A stretch of DNA of 32,000 bases from the NCBI RefSeq assembly GCF_002075285.3, contig NZ_CP021983.2, forward strand, positions 2,130,001 to 2,162,000, read 5' to 3'. The DNA comes from Halomicronema hongdechloris C2206 (lineage in GTDB: Bacteria > Cyanobacteriota > Cyanobacteriia > Phormidesmidales > Phormidesmidaceae). The first letter of the stretch is position 1. Every line of letters starts with the position of its first letter. The notes below the pieces were generated by a model, which made no database searches, was not told where the DNA came from, and saw only the letters and a list, made by a program, of their open reading frames with translations. Below are positions 2,463-31,367 of this stretch, in pieces. A program made the translations under genes and the position numbers.

Positions 2463-3558
2463 ATGATTCAAGCGAATGACTTAGAGACTAACTTGGAGAC
2501 CAATTGCCGTTTTTGCTCGCTGGTCTCCAAAGCCAATGGCCAAGACCCCATCGGCTCTGCCGGTACCTATCACCACTGGCTGATCGTAGAGATCCCTCAA
2601 CCTTGGCCCACCACCATCTGGCAAGAGCATCCCATCGTGGCGCCAGTGCTACAAATGGTCAAGGCCTTGCGCCAGCAGGGGGTCTATGTGCGCCCATTGA
2701 TGATTGCCCCGGAGCGTGACTATTCTCACCCCGACTTCACCCGGGTTCTCTACTATCGCCGTCCCCAAGCATGTTTTACTGCCTTTGAAAAGCAAGAGTT
2801 TCTCCTTCCCCCCTCAGAGGTTGTTCCCCTGGCCACCGCCTTACTGCAACAGCCCGCCGCTCTCCCCCAGTTCGAGGCCTACCGCCAACCCACCCAGCAT
2901 CTCCGCGAACTCTTCGTCTGCACCCACGGCAACGTCGATGTCGCCTGCTCCCGCTTTGGCTATCCCATTTATCAGCAGTTGAAAAAAACCTATGCGGTCG
3001 AGTGGAAGCCTGAATCCCCCCCTCCCCCCCTCCCCATCGCCCCCACTCAAAACTCAAAACCCAAAACTCAAAACTTCCCCCACCCCCCTCCGCGTCTGGC
3101 GCTGCTCCCATTTCGGTGGCCATAACTTTGCCCCTACTCTCATCGACCTACCGACGGGACACTATTGGGGGCATCTAGAACCTGATGCTCTCGATGCCCT
3201 AGTCTATCGTCAAGGAGATGTCCAGCAACTGCGGCGCTTTTATCGCGGCTGGAGTGGCCTGCGGCGCTTTGAGCAGATGGTGGAGCGAGAGCTGTGGATG
3301 CAGCACGGCTGGGATTGGTTGAGCTATGGTAAAGTCGGCCAAACCCTGGCCATGGATACCCCCCAGGAGGATGAGTATGATGCCGACTGGGCCGAGGTGC
3401 GCATTGACTTTGAAGCCCCAGATGGTTATGAGGCTGGTGCCTATGCAGCCCGGGTGGAGGTGGCTGGCGAGGTGCTAACCCAGTGGCGATCGGGAGAAGA
3501 GCATCCTTTAGAGCCGGTGAAGCAATACCAAGTCACTCAGTTGCATCGTGTCGCCTAA
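2463..3558 (+). pseudogene. sucraseferredoxin-like (thioredoxin-like 2Fe-2S) family protein, frameshifted as assembled
   Basis: ORF 2463-3125 carries CTHGNVDVACSRFG. ORF 2992-3558, in a different frame, carries SHFGGHNFAPTLIDLP. These are the two halves of the Sucrase_ferredoxin signature. The frames switch inside the poly-C / heptamer tract at 3016-3090. Confidence 0.7.
3016..3090 (+). repeat. almost G-free low-complexity insert: two C7 runs plus (ACTCAAA)x4 heptamer array
   Basis: Sequence is CCCCCCCTCCCCCCCTCCCC...ACTCAAAACTCAAAACCCAAAACTCAAAAC...CCCCCACCCCCC. The heptamer array is at 3045-3072. Confidence 0.8.
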
Positions 3559-3900: not shown

Positions 3901-6021
3901 ATGCTATCGATACCATGCCTCCCCAACCCGATGCGGCGCCTGATCTGGGTGCTCCTAGGGGGTGCCTTAGCCTTGCTCATCGGGGTCTCCTGGCCGCTTG
4001 CTGGTACCACCGCCACTGAAATCCTTTGGGATACCTACGGAGTGCCCCACATCTATGCCGATGATACCGAGGAGCTCTTTCGGGCCTTTGGCTGGGCCCA
4101 AGCCCAGAGTCACGGTGATCTGATATTACGCCTGTATGGTCAAGCTCGGGGCCGCGCCGCCGAGTACTGGGGAGAAGATTACCTGGACTCAGACCGCTGG
4201 GTGCACACCATGGGCATTCCCAGTCGCGCCCAAGCCTGGTACGAGGCCCAAACACCGCAATTTCAGACCTACTTAGATGCCTTTGCGGCAGGGGTCAATG
4301 CCTATGCCCAGACCCATGAAGCGGCCATTGCCGATGAGGTCGAGGCGGTATTGCCCATTAGTGGGGTCGATCTCCTAGCCCATGGCCAACGGGTGCTCAA
4401 TTTCACCTTTGTGGTCAATCCCCAACAGGTGGCTGCCCTGGCCACAGACGACTCGGCAGCGGCAATGGCCCTGCCGACACCGGGCTCTAACGGCTGGGCC
4501 ATTGCCCCCCAGCGCTCCGCCAGTGGTGAGGCCATGCTGCTGGCTAATCCCCATCTGCCGTGGTCCGAGGCGTTCCGCTGGTATGAAGCTCATCTAATTG
4601 CTCCGGATCTCAATGTCTATGGGGCTAGTCTGGTGGGAATACCGGTGCTCAATATTGCCTTTAATGACCAGCTGGGGTGGACCCACACTGTCAATCTTCA
4701 TGATGGTTGGGATGCCTATCAACTGCGCCTGACGGAGGATGGCTACTGGTTCGACGGGCAGATGCGACCCTTCGAGGTCAGCACCCAGGCCCTCCAAGTC
4801 AAGCAAGCCGATGGCACCCTGCAGCCGAAGACCCTGACCATTCGGCGCTCGCTCCATGGGCCAGTGGTGCAGGAACAAGGAGATACGGCCATTGCCCTAC
4901 GGGTGGTGGGGCTGGAGCATCCCGGTGCCCTGGAGCAGTGGTGGCAGATGGGGCGCGCCCACACCTTGGCGGAATTTGAAGCAGCCCTGCAGCGGCTGCA
5001 AATCCCGATGTTTACGGTGCTCTATGCCGACCGGCAGGGGCACATCCTGCATCTATTTAATGGTCATGTGCCCGTGCGGTCAGGGGGCGATGTCGAGGAC
5101 TGGAGTGGTCTTCTCCCTGGGGATACCTCTGACACCCTCTGGAGCGAGATTCATGCCTACTCAGAGTTGCCCCGGTTGTTGGATCCCCCCACTGGCTGGT
5201 TGCAGAATGCCAATGATCCTCCCTGGACCACCACCCTGCCGCCGGCGATCGACCCAGACGACTATCCCACCTACATCGCTCCCCTCCCTTCCATGGATTC
5301 CCGTGCCCAGCGCTCTGCTCGGATGCTGGCCGAGGATCAACAAATCTCCTTTGAGGAGATGGTCAAGTACAAGCACTCGCCCCGGATGGAACTCGCCGAT
5401 CGCTTACTTGATGATCTGATTCCTGCTGCCCGGCAGCAGGGGAGGTGCACGAGCACGTCGGGCTGCCGATGTCCTGGCTGCCTGGGATCGGGGGCGGCGG
5501 CCGATAGCCGCGCGGCGGTGCTATTTGCCACCTGGGCGCGGCAGGTCGATTTGGAGCGTCTCTTTGCCACACCCTGGGATGAAAATGCCCCTCTGAGTAC
5601 TCCTGCTGGACTGGCGGATCCGGCGGGGGCGGTGGCAGCCCTAGAAGCAGCGGCGGCTCAGGTACAGACGGCCTATGGAGCCCTGGATATTGCCTGGGGA
5701 GATGTGTTTCGCCTGCGCTCTGGCCCGGTAGACTTACCGGCCAGTGGCGGGCCGGGCCATTTAGGGATTTTTCGCAATCTGTGGTTTGCCCCTGAGGAAG
5801 ACGGCACCTTCACTGCCGTTGGCGGCGATTCCTATGTAGCAGCGGTTGAATTTTCAGACCCGGTGCGGGCGATGGCGGTGATGACCTATGGCAATGCCAC
5901 CCAAGCGAGTGCACCCCGTCAGCAGGAGCAATTAGACCTGGCTGCGCAACAGCAGTTGCGGCCGGTGTGGCTATCTCGAGCGGCGATCGAAGCGAATTTA
6001 GTGGTTCGTGAATCCTTCTGA
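3901..6021 (+). CDS. penicillin acylase family Ntn hydrolase (peptidase S45), acyl-homoserine-lactone acylase-like, secreted
   Basis: 706-aa ORF with an N-terminal signal-like segment (MRRLIWVLLGGALALLIG). It carries ILWDTYGVPHIYA and the Ntn nucleophile context PGSNGWAIAP. An alternative start is possible at 3931. There is an internal 18-codon out-of-frame patch at 5439-5494 (see findings). Confidence 0.8.
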   Translation: MLSIPCLPNPMRRLIWVLLGGALALLIGVSWPLAGTTATEILWDTYGVPHIYADDTEELFRAFGWAQAQSHGDLILRLYGQARGRAAEYWGEDYLDSDRWVHTMGIPSRAQAWYEAQTPQFQTYLDAFAAGVNAYAQTHEAAIADEVEAVLPISGVDLLAHGQRVLNFTFVVNPQQVAALATDDSAAAMALPTPGSNGWAIAPQRSASGEAMLLANPHLPWSEAFRWYEAHLIAPDLNVYGASLVGIPVLNIAFNDQLGWTHTVNLHDGWDAYQLRLTEDGYWFDGQMRPFEVSTQALQVKQADGTLQPKTLTIRRSLHGPVVQEQGDTAIALRVVGLEHPGALEQWWQMGRAHTLAEFEAALQRLQIPMFTVLYADRQGHILHLFNGHVPVRSGGDVEDWSGLLPGDTSDTLWSEIHAYSELPRLLDPPTGWLQNANDPPWTTTLPPAIDPDDYPTYIAPLPSMDSRAQRSARMLAEDQQISFEEMVKYKHSPRMELADRLLDDLIPAARQQGRCTSTSGCRCPGCLGSGAAADSRAAVLFATWARQVDLERLFATPWDENAPLSTPAGLADPAGAVAALEAAAAQVQTAYGALDIAWGDVFRLRSGPVDLPASGGPGHLGIFRNLWFAPEEDGTFTAVGGDSYVAAVEFSDPVRAMAVMTYGNATQASAPRQQEQLDLAAQQQLRPVWLSRAAIEANLVVRESF

Positions 6022-8150: not shown

Positions 8151-8223
8151 TGGAGAATAGGGGATTCGAACCCCTGACCTCTGCGGTGCGATCGCAGCGC
8201 TCTACCAACTGAGCTAATTCCCC
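8151..8223 (-). tRNA. tRNA-Ala (anticodon CGC)
   Basis: The reverse complement is GGGGAATTAGCTCAGTTGGTAGAGCGCTGCGATCGCACCGCAGAGGTCAGGGGTTCGAATCCCCTATTCTCCA. The cloverleaf folds by hand, with a G3:U70 Ala identity pair, U33, anticodon CGC and A37. CCA is not encoded. Confidence 0.92.
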
Positions 8224-22579: not shown

Positions 22580-24085
22580 CTATGGCGTCGAATCAGTCAC
22601 GGTGTGTTGGCTCAAAAACGCCTCTAGGTCAAGATGTTGTCCTACGGCATCAGCCACGGCATCTAGGATGGCTTCTCGCTGTTCCCGGTAATTAGGCACT
22701 CCCGTCGGCAGGGAGCCCAATCCCCGCTGCTGTCGCAATCGGTTTAGCCAGGCCCGACGCCAGGCCCCGTTGTCGAAGATGCCATGGAGATAGGTGCCCC
22801 ACAGGGACTGGGTGCTGTCGACAACCCCCAACCCCCGATCATCGAATAGAAATTCGTAGGAGGAGCCATTTTCTTGGGCTTCAGAGAGTACCAATTGGGT
22901 GCGGCCCTGGTGCAGTTCATAGCCAAAGATGGGCAATCCTTCCTGGGGATAGCGGGAACTGACGGTACGTTGGCGAGCCACCTTCTGTTGAGTGATGACG
23001 GTGCGCAGGGGAAACAATCCCAAGCCGCGGTAGCGGCCCCCCTGCCCCTCTAAGCCCTCTGGATCGGCCAACAGTTGGCCCATAATTTGAAAGCCGCCGC
23101 AGATGCCCATGACGGTGCCCCCGGCCGTGGCGTAGTCTTTGATGGCTTCGGCCATGCCGGTCCGTTGTAGGACCAGCAGGTCGGCAATGGAGGTCTTGGT
23201 GCCCGGTAGAACCACGGCATCGGGATAGCCCAGAGACTCTTTAGGGCTGATGTATTTCACCTGCACCGAAGGCTCTGCTTCCAAGGGTTCAAAGTCGGTG
23301 AAGTTGGAGATGCGAGGCAGCCGAATCACGGCCACCGTGACATCAGAGGGTTTGGAGCGGCGCTCAAACAATGACAGAGAATCCTCTGCCGGAAACACCT
23401 GATCCATCCAGGGAATTACGCCCAACACCGGAATGCCGGTGCGCTGTTGCAACCAGTCGAGGCCGTCCTGCAGTAGCTCTGGTTGGCCGCGGAATTTATT
23501 GATAACAATGCCTTTGATCAAGGCCCGCTCATCGGGTTCTAGTAATTCTAAGGTGCCGACGACATGGGCAAATACCCCGCCCCGGTCGATGTCGGCGATG
23601 AGGATGGTGGGCGCCTTGAGATGCTTGGCCACTCGCATGTTGGTGAGGTCGCGGTGCTTCAGGTTAATCTCGGCTGGGCTACCGGCTCCTTCACACACCA
23701 AGAAATCAAAGTCTTGGGTGAGCCGTGTCAAACTTTCCTGAATGGCCTGCCAACCGGTATCAAAGAATTTGTCGTAGTAGTCTTTGGCGGTGGTAGAGCC
23801 TGCGACCCGCCCTCGCAGGACCACCTGGGATGTCATGTCTGCTTGGGGCTTAAGCAGGATCGGGTTCATATCCACCTGGGGGGGTACTTTGGCCGCCCAG
23901 GCTTGCACGGCTTGGGCATAGCCCATTTCGGTGCCGCTGTTGGTGACGTAGGCATTCAGGGCCATGTTTTGCCCCTTGAAGGGGGCGACCCGCCAACCAC
24001 GACGACTCAGCAGGCGACACAGGGCTGTCACCAGCAATGATTTACCTGCATGGGAGGTGGTCCCCACCACCATAATTGCCTTCAT
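22580..24085 (-). CDS. cobQ: cobyric acid synthase
   Basis: MKAIMVVGTTSHAGKSLLVTALCRLLSRRGWRVAPFKGQNMALNAYVT is a typical CobQ N-terminus, and there is a C-terminal GATase domain (ICGGFQ). The ATG at 24085 is preceded by GGGAGG. The track start at 24136 is probably too far upstream. Confidence 0.88.
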   Translation of the reverse strand: MKAIMVVGTTSHAGKSLLVTALCRLLSRRGWRVAPFKGQNMALNAYVTNSGTEMGYAQAVQAWAAKVPPQVDMNPILLKPQADMTSQVVLRGRVAGSTTAKDYYDKFFDTGWQAIQESLTRLTQDFDFLVCEGAGSPAEINLKHRDLTNMRVAKHLKAPTILIADIDRGGVFAHVVGTLELLEPDERALIKGIVINKFRGQPELLQDGLDWLQQRTGIPVLGVIPWMDQVFPAEDSLSLFERRSKPSDVTVAVIRLPRISNFTDFEPLEAEPSVQVKYISPKESLGYPDAVVLPGTKTSIADLLVLQRTGMAEAIKDYATAGGTVMGICGGFQIMGQLLADPEGLEGQGGRYRGLGLFPLRTVITQQKVARQRTVSSRYPQEGLPIFGYELHQGRTQLVLSEAQENGSSYEFLFDDRGLGVVDSTQSLWGTYLHGIFDNGAWRRAWLNRLRQQRGLGSLPTGVPNYREQREAILDAVADAVGQHLDLEAFLSQHTVTDSTP

Positions 24086-24170
24086 CTCATGCCTCCCAAT
24101 GGTGTTTGGCGATTGCATACTCGTTGGGGAACACACGGGGGCGGTGACTTCATGGGGGACTGCCAGTGTG

Positions 24171-24614
24171 TTATACCGATAGCCACCCTGGCAAACGAAG
24201 CCAGCGGCTCACCGCATTATATAGGTGATCCTGAACCCTGGGGGTGAGATCCGGATGTTTTGCTAATTCCCAGTGTTGCAGGAGTTGCCGTCCCAGGGGG
24301 GTGAGGCGAAAGCTATCGGTGATGCCTTGGCCATCGACTTCTCGCCGCAGTAGCCCTACGGTAATCAACCACAGGAGTTCTCCCTCGACTCCCAATTCCG
24401 AGAGAGGACGGCGGGTGTAGCCATTGTGAATGCCACGGCTATCGACCATGGCCTGTAGGGCAATACTGTGGTGGCGCAGGTCGACCAGCAGTTTGAGCCG
24501 CAAGGGAGAACAGCGAAAAGCGCGCTCAGCCCGCCGCAACGCCCGGGAGGAATATGCGATCGCAGGGGTAGCCTTGGGAGTGTCGTCAGAATCAGTAGCC
24601 TGCATAGGGCTCAC
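24171..24614 (-). CDS. hypothetical protein (147 aa)
   Basis: Clean ORF upstream of cobQ on the same strand, with Arg/Leu-rich helical composition. Family not recognised. Confidence 0.5.
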   Translation of the reverse strand: MSPMQATDSDDTPKATPAIAYSSRALRRAERAFRCSPLRLKLLVDLRHHSIALQAMVDSRGIHNGYTRRPLSELGVEGELLWLITVGLLRREVDGQGITDSFRLTPLGRQLLQHWELAKHPDLTPRVQDHLYNAVSRWLRLPGWLSV

Positions 24615-24771
24615 AAAAACCAGCTCAGGTTATACCGAGTCTAGAGCGGGGCCAGTTGGTGTTTTATTGTGCCAACGTCACGGCCTAGATCCAGACAGGG
24701 AAGATATCCTCTTCGATTTTAGTCTGACCTCAGGTTTTCAACAGATGCAAGCTCACGGTGTCAGATGTTCC

Positions 24772-24813
24772 GTAACCGTTGATACCCCACCTAGGCCATG
24801 ACCTTGCTAGAAA
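24772..24813 (+). promoter_or_regulatory. candidate NtcA-type promoter (GTA-N8-TAC plus -10 box)
   Basis: GTAACCGTTGATAC at 24772-24785, then 22 nt, then TAGAAA(T) at 24808-24814. This is canonical class II NtcA geometry, ~70 nt upstream of the riboswitch aptamer. Confidence 0.4.
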
Positions 24814-24885
24814 TAGTGGCAAGTATTGCCTGCCCATGGGCCATACGGAGCGACGCCAACTAAATACTCGGAAGTGAATGGGTTT

Positions 24886-25048
24886 CTAGGGTTCCGACTC
24901 TCCAGCTTCAGCTCTAGAGGTGTCAGCTGTCAGGGTGTCTGGTCCGAGAGAAACCGCCAGAGAGCAGCGTATCGTTGCTGAAATAGACATTCTCCAGCAA
25001 GATGCTGGCTGCTCATCTGGTACACGGCGGGATAAAAGCCCGGGAGGG
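24886..25048 (+). promoter_or_regulatory. guanidine-I riboswitch aptamer (ykkC-yxkD class)
   Basis: All three conserved blocks are present in order: CTAGGGTTCCG (24886-24896), GGTCCGAGAG (24941-24950) and ACACGGCGGGATAAAAGCCCGGGAG (25022-25046). P1a and P2 are longer than usual; for example the CCAGCA-aga-TGCTGG hairpin lies inside P2. Confidence 0.88.
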
Positions 25049-25089
25049 AGTACGGAGGCCACTTCGTCTACCTTCCGGGTCTTTAATTT
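25039..25089 (+). terminator. riboswitch expression platform: terminator stem that competes with the aptamer 3' strand
   Basis: CCCGGGAGG (25039-25047) pairs with CCTTCCGGG (25071-25079), giving 9 bp including one G-U. TCTTTAATTT follows. The 5' arm is part of the conserved GCCCGGGAG aptamer block, so this is ON-switch logic. Confidence 0.6.
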
Positions 25090-25132
25090 GGCGGCCCTTT
25101 TATCCCCTGACTGTAGAATTCGCCGTCTAACC

Positions 25133-26314
25133 ATGAGTGACCCCCCTATTTTTGAACCTCCCGATAGCTCAACAGAAGCCCAACGCTCCCTGTCGCAGGA
25201 AGCCCAGCTGCCCTTAACCGGCTGGCAACAGGAAGTCGACCGGGGCCTAGAATATGGCCTGGAGGCTGCCGCCAGCATCCAAGACCGTAGCATCTCCACC
25301 TTCTCCCGGGGGGAACTGCCCCATTTCGCCGGCATCAATACCTTCCTTAAGGCTCCCTATCTAGAAGATGTACGCCAAGTGGGCAACTACGATGCCGCCA
25401 TCGTCGGCGTGCCCCACGACTCCGGCACCACTTACCGCCCCGGCACTCGCTTTGGCCCCCAGGGGATTCGCCGCATTTCCGCCCTCTATACCCCTTACAA
25501 CTTCGAACTAGGTGTCGATCTGCGGGAGCAAATCACCCTCTGCGACGTGGGCGATATTTTCACCATTCCGGCCAACAACGAGAAGTCCTTCGATCAGATT
25601 TCCAAGGGCATCGCCCACATCTTCAGTGCCGGTGTCTTCCCCATCGTTTTGGGGGGCGATCACTCCATCGGCTTTCCCACCGTGCGCGGCATCTGTCGCC
25701 ACCTGGGAGACAAAAAGGTCGGCATCATCCACTTCGACCGTCATGTGGATACCCAAGAAACCGACTTGGATGAGCGCATGCACACCTGTCCTTGGTTCCA
25801 CGCCACCAATATGGCCAATGCCCCGGCTAAAAATCTGGTGCAACTGGGCATCGGCGGTTGGCAGGTGCCCCGCCAGGGCGTGAAGGTGTGCCGGGAACGA
25901 GCCACCAATATCCTCACCGTGACCGATATCACAGAGATGGGGTTGGACAACGCCGCCACCTTCGCCCTAGAGCATGCCCTCGACGGCACCGACTGTGTCT
26001 GGATTAGCTTCGACATCGACTGCATCGACGCTGGTTTTGTCCCCGGCACGGGCTGGCCAGAGCCTGGCGGACTGCTACCCCGGGAAGCCTTATATCTACT
26101 GAAGAAAATCGTCCAGAATGCCCCCGTCTGTGGCCTGGAAGTGGTGGAGGTGTCACCCCCCTACGACATCAGCGACATCACGGCCCTGATGGCGACTCGG
26201 GTCATCTGCGACACCATGGCTCATTTAGTCCTCTCAGGCCAGCTGCCCCGGACAGCGACTCCGGCCTATATCCAGGCCGACGCCAACCTCAATGTTGACC
26301 AGCAGTGGCGGTAA
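25133..26314 (+). CDS. gdmH: arginase/ureohydrolase-family protein, GdmH-like Ni-dependent guanidine hydrolase (often annotated agmatinase SpeB2)
   Basis: 393 aa from the ATG at 25133. Contains LGGDHSIGFP, HFDRHVDT, SFDIDCIDAGFVPGTGWPEPGG and GLEVVEVSPPYD. The context of a guanidine-I riboswitch upstream and hypA/hypB-like genes downstream mirrors Synechocystis sll1077-1079 as I recall. The track start at 24920 would read through the riboswitch. Confidence 0.8.
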   Translation: MSDPPIFEPPDSSTEAQRSLSQEAQLPLTGWQQEVDRGLEYGLEAAASIQDRSISTFSRGELPHFAGINTFLKAPYLEDVRQVGNYDAAIVGVPHDSGTTYRPGTRFGPQGIRRISALYTPYNFELGVDLREQITLCDVGDIFTIPANNEKSFDQISKGIAHIFSAGVFPIVLGGDHSIGFPTVRGICRHLGDKKVGIIHFDRHVDTQETDLDERMHTCPWFHATNMANAPAKNLVQLGIGGWQVPRQGVKVCRERATNILTVTDITEMGLDNAATFALEHALDGTDCVWISFDIDCIDAGFVPGTGWPEPGGLLPREALYLLKKIVQNAPVCGLEVVEVSPPYDISDITALMATRVICDTMAHLVLSGQLPRTATPAYIQADANLNVDQQWR

Positions 26315-26317
26315 CCC

Positions 26318-26689
26318 ATGCACGAAACGGACATGACTAAGGCCCTGATTCTGACCGTGCGTGACTGGTGGCAATCCCAACCGCAGCGCCAGGCCATCGC
26401 CAAAATTCATCTGAGCGTGGGCCAGTTTACCTGTGTGGAACCAGCCAGTCTGCAGTTTGCCTTCCAGGTGCAAACCCACGGCACCTGGTTGGCCGAGGCC
26501 GAGTTAGTGATTCAAGAGACGCCCCTGATCGCCTTCTGCCATCCCTGTCAGAGCGAGTACACTCCGGAAATCGGTCACCACTACGCCTGCCCCATCTGTC
26601 ACGCCCCCATGGAGGATATTCGCTCCGGTCGAGAGCTTAAAATCGACCGGGTGGAATACGCCTCGCCTACCCCTACTGCCACCCCGTGA
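26318..26689 (+). CDS. hypA: HypA-family nickel metallochaperone (GhaA-like accessory protein)
   Basis: Has the MHE N-terminal Ni-binding motif and the Zn site CHPC...CPIC. It starts 3 nt after the hydrolase stop. Confidence 0.85.
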   Translation: MHETDMTKALILTVRDWWQSQPQRQAIAKIHLSVGQFTCVEPASLQFAFQVQTHGTWLAEAELVIQETPLIAFCHPCQSEYTPEIGHHYACPICHAPMEDIRSGRELKIDRVEYASPTPTATP

Positions 26690-26695
26690 TCTGCC

Positions 26696-27386
26696 ATGCA
26701 TCAACCCCTTGACGACGCCCTCGGCATTAACCTGCTCCACGCCAATCAAGCTGGTGCCGACCATAATCGGGCCCATTTGGACCAATGGGGCATGACCTGC
26801 CTCAATCTGATGAGCGGCCCCGGTGCCGGTAAAACTGCCTTGCTAGAGCAAACCCTGGCCCAGCTCAGCCCTGAGCTCTCTATAGCCGTGGTTGAAGGAG
26901 ACATGACCACCGAACTCGATGCCGATCGGCTGCGGCAGTACGGCGTCCCCGTGATTGCCATCAATACCGGCCGGGCCTGCCACTTAGATGCCCGCATGGT
27001 GGCAGGAGGGCTGCATCAATTGGCTGAGCTCCATAGCCCCAATGACATTGACCTGTTGGTGGTGGAGAACGTGGGCAATCTCGTCTGTCCGGCTGAGTTT
27101 GAGGTGGGGGAACACGCCAAGGTAGCGCTGCTCAGCGTCACCGAAGGGGCTGATAAACCCCTGAAATACCCGGTCATGTTTCGGGAAGCCGATGTGCTGC
27201 TGATTACCAAGATTGATTTGCCCCCTATCTAGATGTGGATCTGGCTGAGATGGAGGCCAATGTGCGGCAGGTGAATCCTGGGTTGCCGTCATGCCTCTGT
27301 CGGCCAAGACCGGGCAAGGGTTAGCCCCCTGGTTGATGTGGCTGCGGCAGATAGTCAAGGCCCGGGCTCAGACCGTTGCCGTTTAA
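26696..27386 (+). pseudogene. hypB: HypB-family Ni-binding GTPase (GhaB-like), 2 frameshifts near the C-terminus as assembled
   Basis: Contains [24 protein letters not shown] and ITKIDL. After 27221 the expected [22 protein letters not shown] and then VMPLSAKTGQGLAPWLMWLRQIV are found in the other two frames. Breaks are at C5 (27221-27225) and ~27285-27290, with the stop at 27384-27386. Confidence 0.8.
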
Positions 27387-27419: not shown

Positions 27420-28469
27420 ATGCAACGACGCACCCTATTACCCCTACTCATGGCCTTCATCGGCGCCCTGTTGATTAGCGTCAGCTGCGCCCAATCAGGC
27501 CCGCAAACGACGGAGACGCCCACGGAGGAGACGCCCGCCGCCGAGACCGCTGCCCCCATCAAGATGGGCTACAGCAGTTGGGCCGGTTGGTGGCCCTGGG
27601 CCATTGCCGAGCAGGAGGGCCTATTCGAGAAGCATGGGGCCAATGTGGAGCTGATCTGGTTTGACGGCTATTTAGAGTCGATGCAGGCCCTGGCTTCTGG
27701 GCAATTGGATGCCAATTGCCAGACCCTAAATGACACCATTTCCTTTGCCGCCGATGCCGTCAACGGGGAAGTGGCAGTGCTCGTGAATGACAACTCCGCC
27801 GGGAACGACAAGGTGATCGTGGCTGCGGAGATTAACACCATCGAGGATCTCAGCGGCAAGACCGTTGCCCTGGAGGAAGGGGTTGTCGGTGACTTTCTGC
27901 TCACCCTGGCCCTGGAAGATGCTGGCATGAGTCGGGAAGATGTCACCATCAAAAACCTGGAGACTGGTGCCGCTGCCACTGCCTTCGCCGCCGGGCAGAC
28001 CGATGCCTTCGCCGGTTGGGTACCTTTTTGGGAAACGGCCCTGACCCGAGCAGGCAGTAAAGAGCTGTTGAGTTCGGCGGCATACCCCGGTGCTATCCCG
28101 GACCTGTTGGTGACTAGCCAGACCCTGATTGATGAGCAACCAGAGCAGGTGCAGGCCCTGGTGAATACTTGGTTTGATGTCCTGGCTTTCATGGCAGACA
28201 ACCCAGACCAGGCCAACGCCATCATGGCTAAGCGGGCCAATGTGGAGGACGACCAGTTTCAGAAGTACCTAGACGGCACCCGTTTCTTCACCCTAGAGGA
28301 GAACTTGGAGGCCTTCAGTGCCGGCGGCGAGGAGATGAAATATATGCCCTATGCCGCCGAACGCATGGCCGAGTTCATGGTGGAGGTCGGGTTTATCCCT
28401 GAGACTCCTGAGCTTGAGCCCATTCTGGATGATCAGTTCCTGCAGACCTATGCCAAGGCTCAGGCGTGA
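27420..28469 (+). CDS. ABC transporter substrate-binding lipoprotein, NitT/TauT (NMT1-like) family; probable guanidine-binding component
   Basis: 349 aa with GGAGG upstream of the ATG. It has a signal peptide with a Cys (LLISVSCAQSG) and the IKMGYSSWAGWWPW pattern typical of NitT/TauT substrate-binding proteins. Confidence 0.8.
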   Translation: MQRRTLLPLLMAFIGALLISVSCAQSGPQTTETPTEETPAAETAAPIKMGYSSWAGWWPWAIAEQEGLFEKHGANVELIWFDGYLESMQALASGQLDANCQTLNDTISFAADAVNGEVAVLVNDNSAGNDKVIVAAEINTIEDLSGKTVALEEGVVGDFLLTLALEDAGMSREDVTIKNLETGAAATAFAAGQTDAFAGWVPFWETALTRAGSKELLSSAAYPGAIPDLLVTSQTLIDEQPEQVQALVNTWFDVLAFMADNPDQANAIMAKRANVEDDQFQKYLDGTRFFTLEENLEAFSAGGEEMKYMPYAAERMAEFMVEVGFIPETPELEPILDDQFLQTYAKAQA

Positions 28470-28645: not shown

Positions 28646-29491
28646 ATGTCTTCTGTTGCCCGGAATGCTCCGCCATCCATGACCACTACCGATCGCAGCC
28701 TGCAGCCCACCGTCTTCTGGCGTTTAGCCGAAGGTATTCCCCCAGGACTGAGCTGGTTGCTGATGGCCCTGTCGGTGCTGGTCCCGCTGTTGGCCTGGTT
28801 TTTGTTGTCTAACGCCGGGGTGATCAGTCCCCGCTTTTTACCCACGCCTCAGATGGTGGTAACGGCCCTGGGACGACTCTGGCAGCAGGGCTATCTGGGC
28901 CAGGATACCTTCGCCAGCTTCTTTCGGGTAATGGTGGGATTTTTGCTGGCCGGGCTGGTGGCGATCCCGGTAGGCATTGCCATGGGGGCTTTTGCCAGTA
29001 TTCGAGCCCTATTTGAGCCGATTATCGGCATCGTTCGCTACATGCCAGCCCCGGCGTTTATTCCGCTGCTGATTATCTATTTGGGGTTGGGGGAAACTCC
29101 GAAGGTGGCGCTGATTTTCATCGGTACGGTGTTCTACAACATTCTGATGATTATGGATGCGGTCAAGTTCGTGCCCAAGGACCTGATCGAGAGTACCTAT
29201 ACCCTAGGGGGCAACCGCCGTCAGGTGCTGTTTCAGGTGATTGTGCCCTATGTGGTGCCGAATATGTTGGATACCTTCCGCATCAATGTCGCCACTTCGT
29301 GGAACCTAGTGGTGGTGGCGGAGCTGGTGGCGGCTGAGGTGGGCCTGGGCAAGCGCATTGCCATTGCCCAGAAGTTTTTCCAGACCGATGAGATCTTTGC
29401 CTGCTTACTGGTGTTGGGGGTGATCGGGTTTTTACTGGACCTGTCTCTGCGTCTGCTGCTGCAAACCACCTGTAGATGGGCCATTGATTGA
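28646..29491 (+). CDS. ABC transporter permease (NitT/TauT family)
   Basis: 281 aa with multiple transmembrane segments and an EAA-like loop (ESTYTLGGNRRQVLFQVIVPYVVP). Confidence 0.8.
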   Translation: MSSVARNAPPSMTTTDRSLQPTVFWRLAEGIPPGLSWLLMALSVLVPLLAWFLLSNAGVISPRFLPTPQMVVTALGRLWQQGYLGQDTFASFFRVMVGFLLAGLVAIPVGIAMGAFASIRALFEPIIGIVRYMPAPAFIPLLIIYLGLGETPKVALIFIGTVFYNILMIMDAVKFVPKDLIESTYTLGGNRRQVLFQVIVPYVVPNMLDTFRINVATSWNLVVVAELVAAEVGLGKRIAIAQKFFQTDEIFACLLVLGVIGFLLDLSLRLLLQTTCRWAID

Positions 29492-29494
29492 CAT

Positions 29495-30286
29495 ATGCAC
29501 TTAGACATTGCCCAGGTTCACAAGCAATTTGCCACCCGCGGTGGGCCGTTGGTGGCCTTGCAGGATATCACGATGCAGGTGGAGACGGGGGAGTTTGTCT
29601 GTGCCGTGGGGGCCTCGGGCTCGGGTAAATCTACCCTGTTGCGGCTGATTGCTGGGCTGGAGCGGCCCACCAGCGGCACCATCTCTGTCGATGGACGGGG
29701 TGTGACAGGGCCAGGAGCTGACCGAGGCATGGTGTTTCAGAGCTATACTCTCTACCCCTGGATGACGGTACAGAACAATGTGGAGTTTGGCCTCAAGTTG
29801 CGAGGAATCTCGGCCCGGGAGCGGCGACAACAGGCCTCCTACTATCTGGAGATGGTGGGGCTGGCCCCTTTTGCCCGGGCACTGCCTAAGGAACTCTCGG
29901 GGGGCATGAAGCAGCGGGTTGCGATCGCACGGGCCCTAGCCAACCAGCCCAAGATTCTACTGATGGATGAGCCCTTCGGGGCCCTGGACGTGCAGACCAA
30001 GGAGACCATGCAGCAGTTTTTGCTAGAGCTGTGGCAGCGTCTAGGCATCAGCATTTTGATGATTACCCACGATGTGGCCGAGGCGGTGTTCCTGAGCCAG
30101 CGCATCTATGTGTTATCGGCCAGCCCTGGCACCATCGCCCGAGAGTTGAGCATCGACCTGGGCCAACGGCGGGACTACGGCATCCGTCGCAGCTCCCAGT
30201 TTCATCACTACTGCGAAGACATCATGGACCTGCTGCGGCAATCCCAACGGGCCACCTTTGGAGTGCCCCAGTCGATAGGACCATGA
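29495..30286 (+). CDS. ABC transporter ATP-binding protein (NitT/TauT family)
   Basis: Walker A GASGSGKST, signature LSGGMKQRVAIARAL and Walker B ILLMDEPFGALD. Confidence 0.88.
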   Translation: MHLDIAQVHKQFATRGGPLVALQDITMQVETGEFVCAVGASGSGKSTLLRLIAGLERPTSGTISVDGRGVTGPGADRGMVFQSYTLYPWMTVQNNVEFGLKLRGISARERRQQASYYLEMVGLAPFARALPKELSGGMKQRVAIARALANQPKILLMDEPFGALDVQTKETMQQFLLELWQRLGISILMITHDVAEAVFLSQRIYVLSASPGTIARELSIDLGQRRDYGIRRSSQFHHYCEDIMDLLRQSQRATFGVPQSIGP

Positions 30287-31367
30287 CGGGTGCCGGTTGC
30301 CCCTGTCCCGATACTTTTTTACTGCCGGCCCATCACTACACCGATGCCGCCTGGATGCAGCCGGAGTGCGATCGCATCTTCCGCCGCAGCTGGCAGTACC
30401 TGCCCCAGGCCGCCCTGTTACAACCGCCCCACACCTGCCTGGGCCTTGAGGTGGCCGGTGCGCCCCTGGTGCTCACCCGTGATGGTCAGGGCCACCTACG
30501 TGCCTTCTACAACGTCTGTCCCCACCGGGCCGCCCTGCTCTGCCCCACCTCAGGTCCCCACACCCAGAAGCACCTGGTATGCCCCTACCATGGCTGGACC
30601 TACGACCTAACAGGCCAGCTGGTGGGCCTTCCCAGGGGCGATCGCTTCTCCCCAGAAGTCCAGCCGCAAGATTATCCCCTCACCCCAGTGCGGCTGGAGC
30701 CGTGGCAGGGATTCTGGTTCCTCTGCCTCGATTTCCAAGCCCCACCCCTAGTGGAAGTGCTACAGCCTATCCCCCAGTGGATCCGTCAGCACCGTCGTGC
30801 CGGCAGCCAACCCCTGGTGCACAAGACCTACAGCGTGGCCTGCAACTGGAAGGTCTATCACGACAATACCCTCTGTGACTATCACGTGGCCATCGCCCAT
30901 CGCACCACCCTGCATAAGCTGCAAGGGCCGGTGCACCACTACCGCCACCATTTCCATCACTACGTCAACTGCCTCTATACCCCGACTCCTGCGGCTTGGC
31001 GAGACCGGCATCCCCGCCTTGAGGGCCTGGATGATGAGGCCGGCCACGGCTTCTATACCTTTGGCATCTTTCCCAACCTGCACTTGCTGGCCATGCCCGA
31101 TGGCGTGCTGGCCTGGATTCAGATTACGCCTCTGGCCGTCGATCGCTGCCAAGTCAGCCTCGATATCCACGGCATCCCTGGCCTCAGTCCCGCGGCAGAG
31201 ACCCTATTAGCCGACTTTGAAGCCTTCATGGCCGAGGATATGGCCATCACCCGCGGCGGTGCAGCGTGGTTACAGCAGTGGCTGCCACCCGTCCCGGTCC
31301 CGTGAATCAGCTGGAAGCCCGGATCGTGCATCAGCAACGGCTGATCTGGCAAGCATTGGCAGGGTAG
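30283..31367 (+). pseudogene. Rieske [2Fe-2S] non-heme iron oxygenase alpha subunit, choline-monooxygenase-like clade; 2 frameshifts near the C-terminus as assembled
   Basis: The ATG at 30283 overlaps the TGA of the ATPase gene (ATGA). Rieske motif: CPHRAALLC...CPYHGWTY. Mononuclear iron motif: NWKVYHDNTLCDYHVAIAH. The C-terminal AAVQRGYSSG and NQLEARIVHQQRLIWQALAG are found in the other frames, with breaks at ~31248-31256 and ~31285-31302 and the stop at 31365-31367. Confidence 0.75.

Follow-up and report, generated by a model that had tools for sequence, protein, structure and literature searches.

Which regulatory RNA precedes the guanidine hydrolase gene that begins at 25133 in Halomicronema hongdechloris C2206, and by what means does it act on that gene? 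In the whole stretch of 32,000 nucleotides that was analysed (the window), the sole riboswitch match given by cmscan is RF00442 (Guanidine-I), at 24875-25048 of the plus strand, with 75.2 bits against a gathering score of 63 and an E-value of 7.6e-12 that covers the whole 32-kb window and all 4227 families of Rfam 15. The match runs end to end over model positions 1-107 of 107, and a permissive rescan of 24760-25160 for other RNA families and subtype 2 models returned none at E<=10 besides noise at E>4. The preliminary description of this locus, which had recognized the ykkC class from three conserved blocks and had named the guanidine-I covariance model as the check on that assignment, is borne out by this search. 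A tRNA gene elsewhere in the window (8151-8223, minus strand; RF00005, 69.5 bits) is unrelated to the riboswitch. The aptamer and its parts are:

24875..25048, plus strand: guanidine-I (ykkC subtype 1) aptamer; RF00442 match, helices in the unconstrained fold, covariation
24881-24886 with 24950-24955, plus strand: P1; covariance-model (CM) alignment and unconstrained fold
24889-24890 with 24944-24945, plus strand: P1a; CM alignment and unconstrained fold
24894-24901 with 24932-24942, plus strand: P1b; CM alignment and unconstrained fold
24902..24931, plus strand: P1b tip extension, 30 nt (model loop 7 nt); CM alignment
24956-24961 with 25016-25021, plus strand: P2; CM alignment and unconstrained fold
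24962..25015, plus strand: P2 tip extension, 54 nt (model loop 10 nt); CM alignment
25023 with 25043, plus 25029-25031 with 25039-25041, plus strand: P3; CM alignment

The segment 24875-25048 is a guanidine-I riboswitch aptamer. Its three conserved blocks stand in the order expected for guanidine-I, as had been noticed before, and each is an exact match to its consensus: block 1, CTAGGGTTCCG (24886-24896), to CUAGGGUUCCG; block 2, GGTCCGAGAG (24941-24950), to GGUCCGAGAG; and block 3, ACACGGCGGGATAAAAGCCCGGGAG (25022-25046), to ACGGxGGGAxAAAAGCCCGGGAG. At none of the invariant and near-invariant aptamer columns of the core alignment described below does the window depart from the consensus base, and by analogy the RNA would be expected to bind guanidine. 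The start of the feature had been placed at 24886, too far downstream: that boundary cuts off the 5' strand of P1 (GGUUUC, 24881-24886).

P1, P1a, P1b and P2 are reproduced by an unconstrained fold of 24875-25140, and all 26 of 26 consensus pairs form in the window. In guanidine-I aptamers P1, P1a, P1b and P2 stack coaxially and the loop of P3 docks into P1a (PMC6031431). Relatives were sampled as 80 cyanobacterial loci that encode close relatives of the downstream protein, and the three blocks are present upstream in 62 of them. The survey comprises 65 riboswitch copies, counting the window's own and a second copy in one locus, an Acaryochloridaceae MAG (L014); 64 copies (the window and 63 from relatives) were usable for a core alignment in which the variable tips were trimmed and pairs were counted on the Rfam consensus structure. 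Across these 64 copies 92.8% of the cells are paired, a proportion that drops to 26-51% once partners are displaced by 1-3 columns, and 17 of the 26 pairs vary on both sides, values reached by 0 of 500 shuffles. The helices with covariation are P1, P1b and P2, and the compensatory pairing called for by the earlier assignment is thus found; P1a and P3 are invariant and hence uninformative.

The aptamer had been described as enlarged in P1a and P2, its extra length being attributed to hairpins added between the blocks. The attribution is correct, and so is the enlargement of P2; the first enlargement lies at the tip of P1b rather than in P1a, in the nomenclature of PMC6031431. Taken alone, the 30 nt added to P1b fold into an imperfect hairpin of no significant stability (z -0.76), and as an independently stable hairpin the extension was rejected on that value. 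The P2 extension together with the base of P2 makes a near-perfect hairpin of about 26 bp, and for the segment 24951-25021 the folding energy is -33.7 kcal/mol (z -5.99). Among the 65 copies the spacing of blocks 1 and 2 has a median of 27 nt and a range of 18-133 nt (window 44 nt), and that of blocks 2 and 3 a median of 50 nt and a range of 19-95 nt, the window's 71 nt being the second longest; four relatives exceed the window in total length.

Some relatives (L025, L026, L032 and L049) have a compact P2, AAACCGCCAG-UUUU-CUGGU. The base of the window's P2, AAACCGCCAG...CTGGT, is identical to theirs, so the window's P2 seems to be this helix with its loop exchanged for a hairpin of ~52 nt. An origin of this insert as a mobile or repeated hairpin was considered and dropped: a search of the window that allowed up to 3 mismatches gave no second copy, and the 120 metagenome matches to a 17-mer from the insert are all chance ones, with flank identity of <=50% and 0 accompanied by a riboswitch block. 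In cyanobacterial gdmH leaders an enlarged P1b and P2 is the rule, and over 64 such leaders the tips of both helices form a continuous range of lengths around an unchanging core, terminator design and NtcA box. In the known architecture the 30-nt and 54-nt hairpins would occupy the far ends of the P1-P1a-P1b / P2 coaxial stack, remote from the binding pocket. The extra hairpins are most likely tolerated, lineage-variable extensions; a functional add-on, e.g. the 26-bp P2 extension as target of a double-strand-specific RNase or of a protein, is a remote possibility.

Upstream of the aptamer the sequence holds two promoter-like elements:

24772..24785, plus strand: NtcA-type box GTAACCGTTGATAC (GTA-N8-TAC, perfect); motif match, with an inferred function
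24808..24813, plus strand: -10-like hexamer TAGAAA, 22 nt downstream of the NtcA box; read from the sequence

The box is one of only four matches to GTAN8TAC in the 32-kb window, and 44 of 64 riboswitch copies (the window and 43 of 63 from relatives) are preceded by the same motif, with 0.03 expected per 220 nt. The hexamer ends in A, not T, and relatives have TAGAAC, TAGAAA or TATCAA at the same spacing. On the basis of these elements transcription is likely to start near 24820, and the operon of the window probably depends on NtcA, as does transcription of gdmH in Synechocystis (PMC12704784). A generic sigma-70 scan gave no -35/-10 pair at the operon promoter, an absence that fits an activator-dependent promoter. 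At about the predicted transcription start there is a perfect hairpin, GGCAA-GTA-TTGCC (24818-24834), which a scan called minus-strand terminator-like; no minus-strand gene ends there, and the hairpin could be a 5'-terminal stem-loop of the leader.

Control by the aptamer appears to be exerted at the structure that directly follows it:

25038..25080, plus strand: terminator hairpin, 43 nt; MFE structure, -29.1 kcal/mol, z -3.41 (segment 25036-25095)
25081..25089, plus strand: U-rich tail CUUUAAUUU, an interrupted U-tract; sequence

The outer stem pairs GCCCGGGAGG (25038-25047) with CCUUCCGGGU (25071-25080) and encloses an inner stem-loop at 25049-25069. Within it CCCGGGAGG (25039-25047) has its complement in CCTTCCGGG (25071-25079), a single G-U pair included, and TCTTTAATTT (25080-25089) comes next. 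Since the outer stem takes the 3' strand of P3, P3 and the terminator hairpin are mutually exclusive. A terminator that sequesters the aptamer 3' strand had been proposed from the sequence, and the comparison upholds it: a homologous hairpin with U-tail is present in 63 of the 65 copies, the figure for controls with shuffled downstream sequence being 15 of 65. The alternative terminator pairing is conserved. In the shared design CCGGGAG(R) and (Y)CUCCYGG flank a variable inner hairpin, and G(C/U)UUUU comes next; the sequence of the inner hairpin is wholly different between lineages and its pairing is always kept.

The U-tract of the window, GUCUUUAA (8 nt after the ...CCGG stem end), has 4 U and is within the clade range (1-7, mostly 4-5) yet weaker than in most relatives. 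Because CUUUAAUUU is interrupted, termination, which is predicted to fall at about 25085-25090, may be inefficient. A generic terminator scan missed the 25038-25080 hairpin, its loop rule of 3-8 nt excluding nested stems; neither this miss nor that of the promoter scan was counted against these elements, the rules being unfit for a nested hairpin and for an NtcA-dependent promoter.

The energy of the hairpin, its conservation in 63 of 65 copies and the finding that nothing pairs with the start region of the gene support a ligand-dependent anti-termination (ON) model, and prevention of terminator formation is the usual mode of guanidine-I riboswitches (PMC12186494). In this model transcription would probably start near 24820 from the NtcA-activated promoter. 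Without guanidine the weak P3 hairpin would give up its 3' strand, CCCGGGAGG, to CCUUCCGGGU; the hairpin of about -29 kcal/mol with CUUUAAUUU would then be completed, and RNA polymerase would stop before gdmH. With guanidine the P3 loop would be docked on P1a and the P3 3' strand unavailable, the terminator would be absent, and transcription would proceed into gdmH, an ON switch by anti-termination.

A different mode of control, in which the aptamer acts mainly on translation or mRNA stability through access to the gdmH start region and the 25038-25080 structure is merely a competitor, is suggested by the weak, interrupted U-tail and by the precedent of guanidine-II and -III riboswitches, which work on translation or stability (PMC12186494). 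It gains something too from the stretch 25097-25109, which lengthens the OFF-state helix past the terminator and would matter only for unterminated transcripts. Against these points, the AUG (25133) and the preceding 25 nt are unpaired with aptamer or terminator in any predicted fold, the leader has no Shine-Dalgarno sequence to sequester, and what 63 of 65 copies conserve is a hairpin with U-tail placed directly after the aptamer, its distance from the start codon being variable. Sequestration of this codon as a block to translation was rejected for want of a supporting structure, the segment 25049-25140 having no significant one (z +0.87). Control of translation or stability is therefore judged unlikely, and anti-termination remains the preferred reading.

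The stretch just named requires separate comment:

25097..25109, plus strand: window-specific element CUUUUAUCCC(CUG); complement of the P3 5' strand and loop

CUUUUAUCCC (25097-25106) is a perfect 10-nt complement of GGGAUAAAAG (25029-25038), which comprises the 5' strand and loop of P3, and in the long-range MFE fold it joins the terminator, extending the OFF-state helix to about -41 kcal/mol. A match to P3 as good as this one, which was noticed post hoc, arose in only 9-14 of 2000 dinucleotide shuffles (0.5-0.7%) of the downstream leader. The element was not found in any relative, the longest complementarity there being 4-7 nt, as in shuffles, and a metagenome scan for the pattern GGGATAAAAGCCCGGGAG-N35-65-CTTTTATCCC gave 0 matches. 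As a recurrent feature it was rejected on these two grounds, which mark it as lineage-specific; it may be chance, or a lineage-specific refinement. That CUUUUAUCCC(CUG) is functional, forming with the terminator a bipartite helix that would irreversibly unfold the aptamer in transcripts escaping the weak terminator, is a doubtful proposal to which little weight is given; if true, it would constitute a second, post-transcriptional OFF lock or reset device of a kind not described for guanidine-I riboswitches.

The genes downstream of the riboswitch bear on what it senses and on whether it still serves a function:

25133..26314, plus strand: gdmH, Ni-dependent guanidine hydrolase orthologue; PDB 7ESR/7OI1 match, agmatinase-family profiles
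26318-26689, plus strand: ghaA (hypA-like); TIGR00100 hypA match
26696-27386, plus strand: ghaB (hypB-like); TIGR00073 hypB match, profile only to position 168 of 217
27420-28469, plus strand: gimABC-like importer, binding protein; NCBIfam SsuA-like profile
28646-29491, plus strand: gimABC-like importer, permease; NCBIfam TauC-like profile
29495-30286, plus strand: gimABC-like importer, ATPase; NCBIfam TauB-like profile

The gdmH product matches PDB 7ESR/7OI1 (deposited as 'Probable agmatinase 2') over its full length (residues 1-393, E 2.2e-239), entries that we take to be Synechocystis Sll1077, the Ni-dependent guanidine hydrolase GdmH. It has 80 cyanobacterial orthologues of 84-89% identity, most of them aligned from residue 1 or 2. 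The mechanical ORF start, a GTG at 24920, lies within the aptamer and had already been pointed out as misleading; since the alignment with the relatives begins at residue 1 of the product read from ATG 25133, this ATG is the true gdmH start. The leaders of the relatives show the same ATG-AGY-GAC... start.

The aptamer of the window is associated with genes for guanidine assimilation: a GdmH orthologue, ghaA/ghaB-like genes of nickel-maturase type and gimABC-like genes for an ABC transporter. The position of gimABC after gdmH-ghaAB is that seen in most of the 44 relatives with all three gim genes, and among relatives whose contig extends far enough the whole arrangement is the usual one; the gdmH-ghaA-ghaB-gimABC arrangement has been described for cyanobacteria, where GimABC was named and tested (PMC12704784). 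In L014 the two guanidine-I copies lie at 1093-1200 and 5058-5182, one upstream of gimABC-like genes and the other upstream of gdmH. Directly after gimC the window has a gene for a Rieske-type oxygenase (30286-31305); because a homologue follows gimC in only 2 related loci (L037 and L058), this gene is not counted as a regular member of the cluster. Upstream of the riboswitch and divergent from it are cobQ and an Npun_F0494-family gene (22580-24614, minus strand), a synteny common to 13 related loci; L058 has Npun_F0494 without cobQ.

ghaB contains two 1-nt deletions in short homopolymers, at about 27222 (TTG[G]CC) and about 27287 (CC[C]GTC), and its C-terminal ~50 residues are found in the other two frames; the lesions are either assembly errors or those of a pseudogene. 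If the frameshifts are real the operon may be decaying, and the riboswitch could then be a relic that regulates nothing useful, a view with which the degenerate U-tract of the terminator, compared with the relatives' GCUUUUG, would also agree. Weighing against decay, all invariant aptamer positions are intact and gdmH, ghaA and gimABC are full-length; moreover, the ghaB lesions are 1-nt homopolymer deletions and an unrelated gene is split likewise, which argues for assembly error. In that gene two overlapping ORFs (2463-3125 and 2992-3558) match positions 2-127 and 130-191 of Pfam Suc_Fer-like, and since this Suc_Fer-like gene is split by a frameshift in the manner of ghaB, the assembly probably contains indel errors. 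A relic is accordingly very improbable. With 1-nt indels in at least two genes of the assembly single bases of the leader may be wrong as well, and the exact U-tract and similar fine detail should not be over-read.

Least credible of all is the reading as a ykkC RNA of subtype 2, whose ligand would be PRPP, ppGpp or a nucleoside diphosphate in place of guanidine: such variants resemble guanidine-I in overall fold and in many conserved nucleotides and are told apart by a pyrimidine in place of the conserved adenosine A46 of subtype 1 and by an additional P0 helix (PMC6031431), and they are excluded here because the GGUCCGAGAG block is intact (10 of 10 positions as in the guanidine-I consensus, both adenosines retained, the pocket marker being read from block identity rather than from a structural placement of A46 on the window), because the tails UGAAUG (5') and GAGGG (3') are not complementary and can form no P0, and because the genes, a guanidine hydrolase and a guanidine importer, are guanidine-specific, RF00442 being in addition the sole family matched. 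With high confidence, the leader of gdmH-ghaA-ghaB(-gimABC) is read as containing a guanidine-I riboswitch that acts as an anti-termination ON switch behind a probably NtcA-activated promoter.

The nearest known system is the riboswitch in the 5' UTR of gdmH (sll1077) of Synechocystis sp. PCC 6803. There the RF00442 leader binds guanidine with a Kd of about 58 uM, a point mutant loses binding, and guanidine induces a reporter 4-5-fold; riboswitch and gdmH regulon were validated experimentally (PNAS 2025), the transcriptional ON mechanism being inferred by the authors from similarity, not demonstrated (PMC12704784). Both elements belong to RF00442 and regulate the same gene, and in both gdmH-ghaA-ghaB is followed by gimABC, an NtcA-type promoter lies upstream and an anti-termination ON switch is proposed. 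They differ in that the Synechocystis element is validated by experiment whereas that of the window is known from sequence, and in that Synechocystis has a second NtcA promoter upstream of gimA, where no GTAN8TAC is found in the window. The modulated positions in Synechocystis (A54-A57, A98-G100; PMC12704784) suggest a compact aptamer of ~100 nt, as against 163-174 nt in the window, a difference due to the 30-nt P1b and 54-nt P2 extensions.

With the RF00442 consensus and with the aptamers of known crystal structure (S. acidophilus 5T83; Burkholderia sp. TJI49, PMC8457001) the element shares all conserved blocks, P1, P1a, P1b, P2, P3, the A-rich P3 loop and a 3' strand common with the terminator. 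The P1b and P2 tips of the window exceed the RF00442 model loops by 23 nt and 44 nt, at the distal ends of the coaxial stack; variation of P2 was already noted in the Burkholderia sp. TJI49 aptamer, in that case an internal loop (PMC8457001). The enlarged leaders of filamentous cyanobacteria (e.g. L044, L065, L006, L063 and L074) precede the same gene, have the same terminator design and a long P1b and/or P2, and measure 156-239 nt from block 1 to the end of block 3, compared with 161 nt in the window; the inserted hairpins are not alignable between lineages, and these leaders lack CUUUUAUCCC downstream of the terminator.

The switch class, its association with gdmH and the extra-long hairpins are already known or common in cyanobacteria. 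The novelty of the locus was consequently overrated at first, enlarged P1b and P2 being usual in cyanobacterial gdmH leaders and the Synechocystis gdmH riboswitch having already been validated (PMC12704784). For annotation, the element should be labelled a guanidine-I riboswitch and the start of gdmH set at 25133 rather than 24920. The current understanding is unchallenged by these findings, and the comparative gain is modest: the tips of P1b and P2 vary in length around a fixed core, terminator design and NtcA box, a survey of which may aid the engineering of inexpensive inducible switches (PMC12704784). The element is a further example of a known riboswitch in the setting already known for it in cyanobacteria, and its length belongs to the upper end of a continuous distribution.
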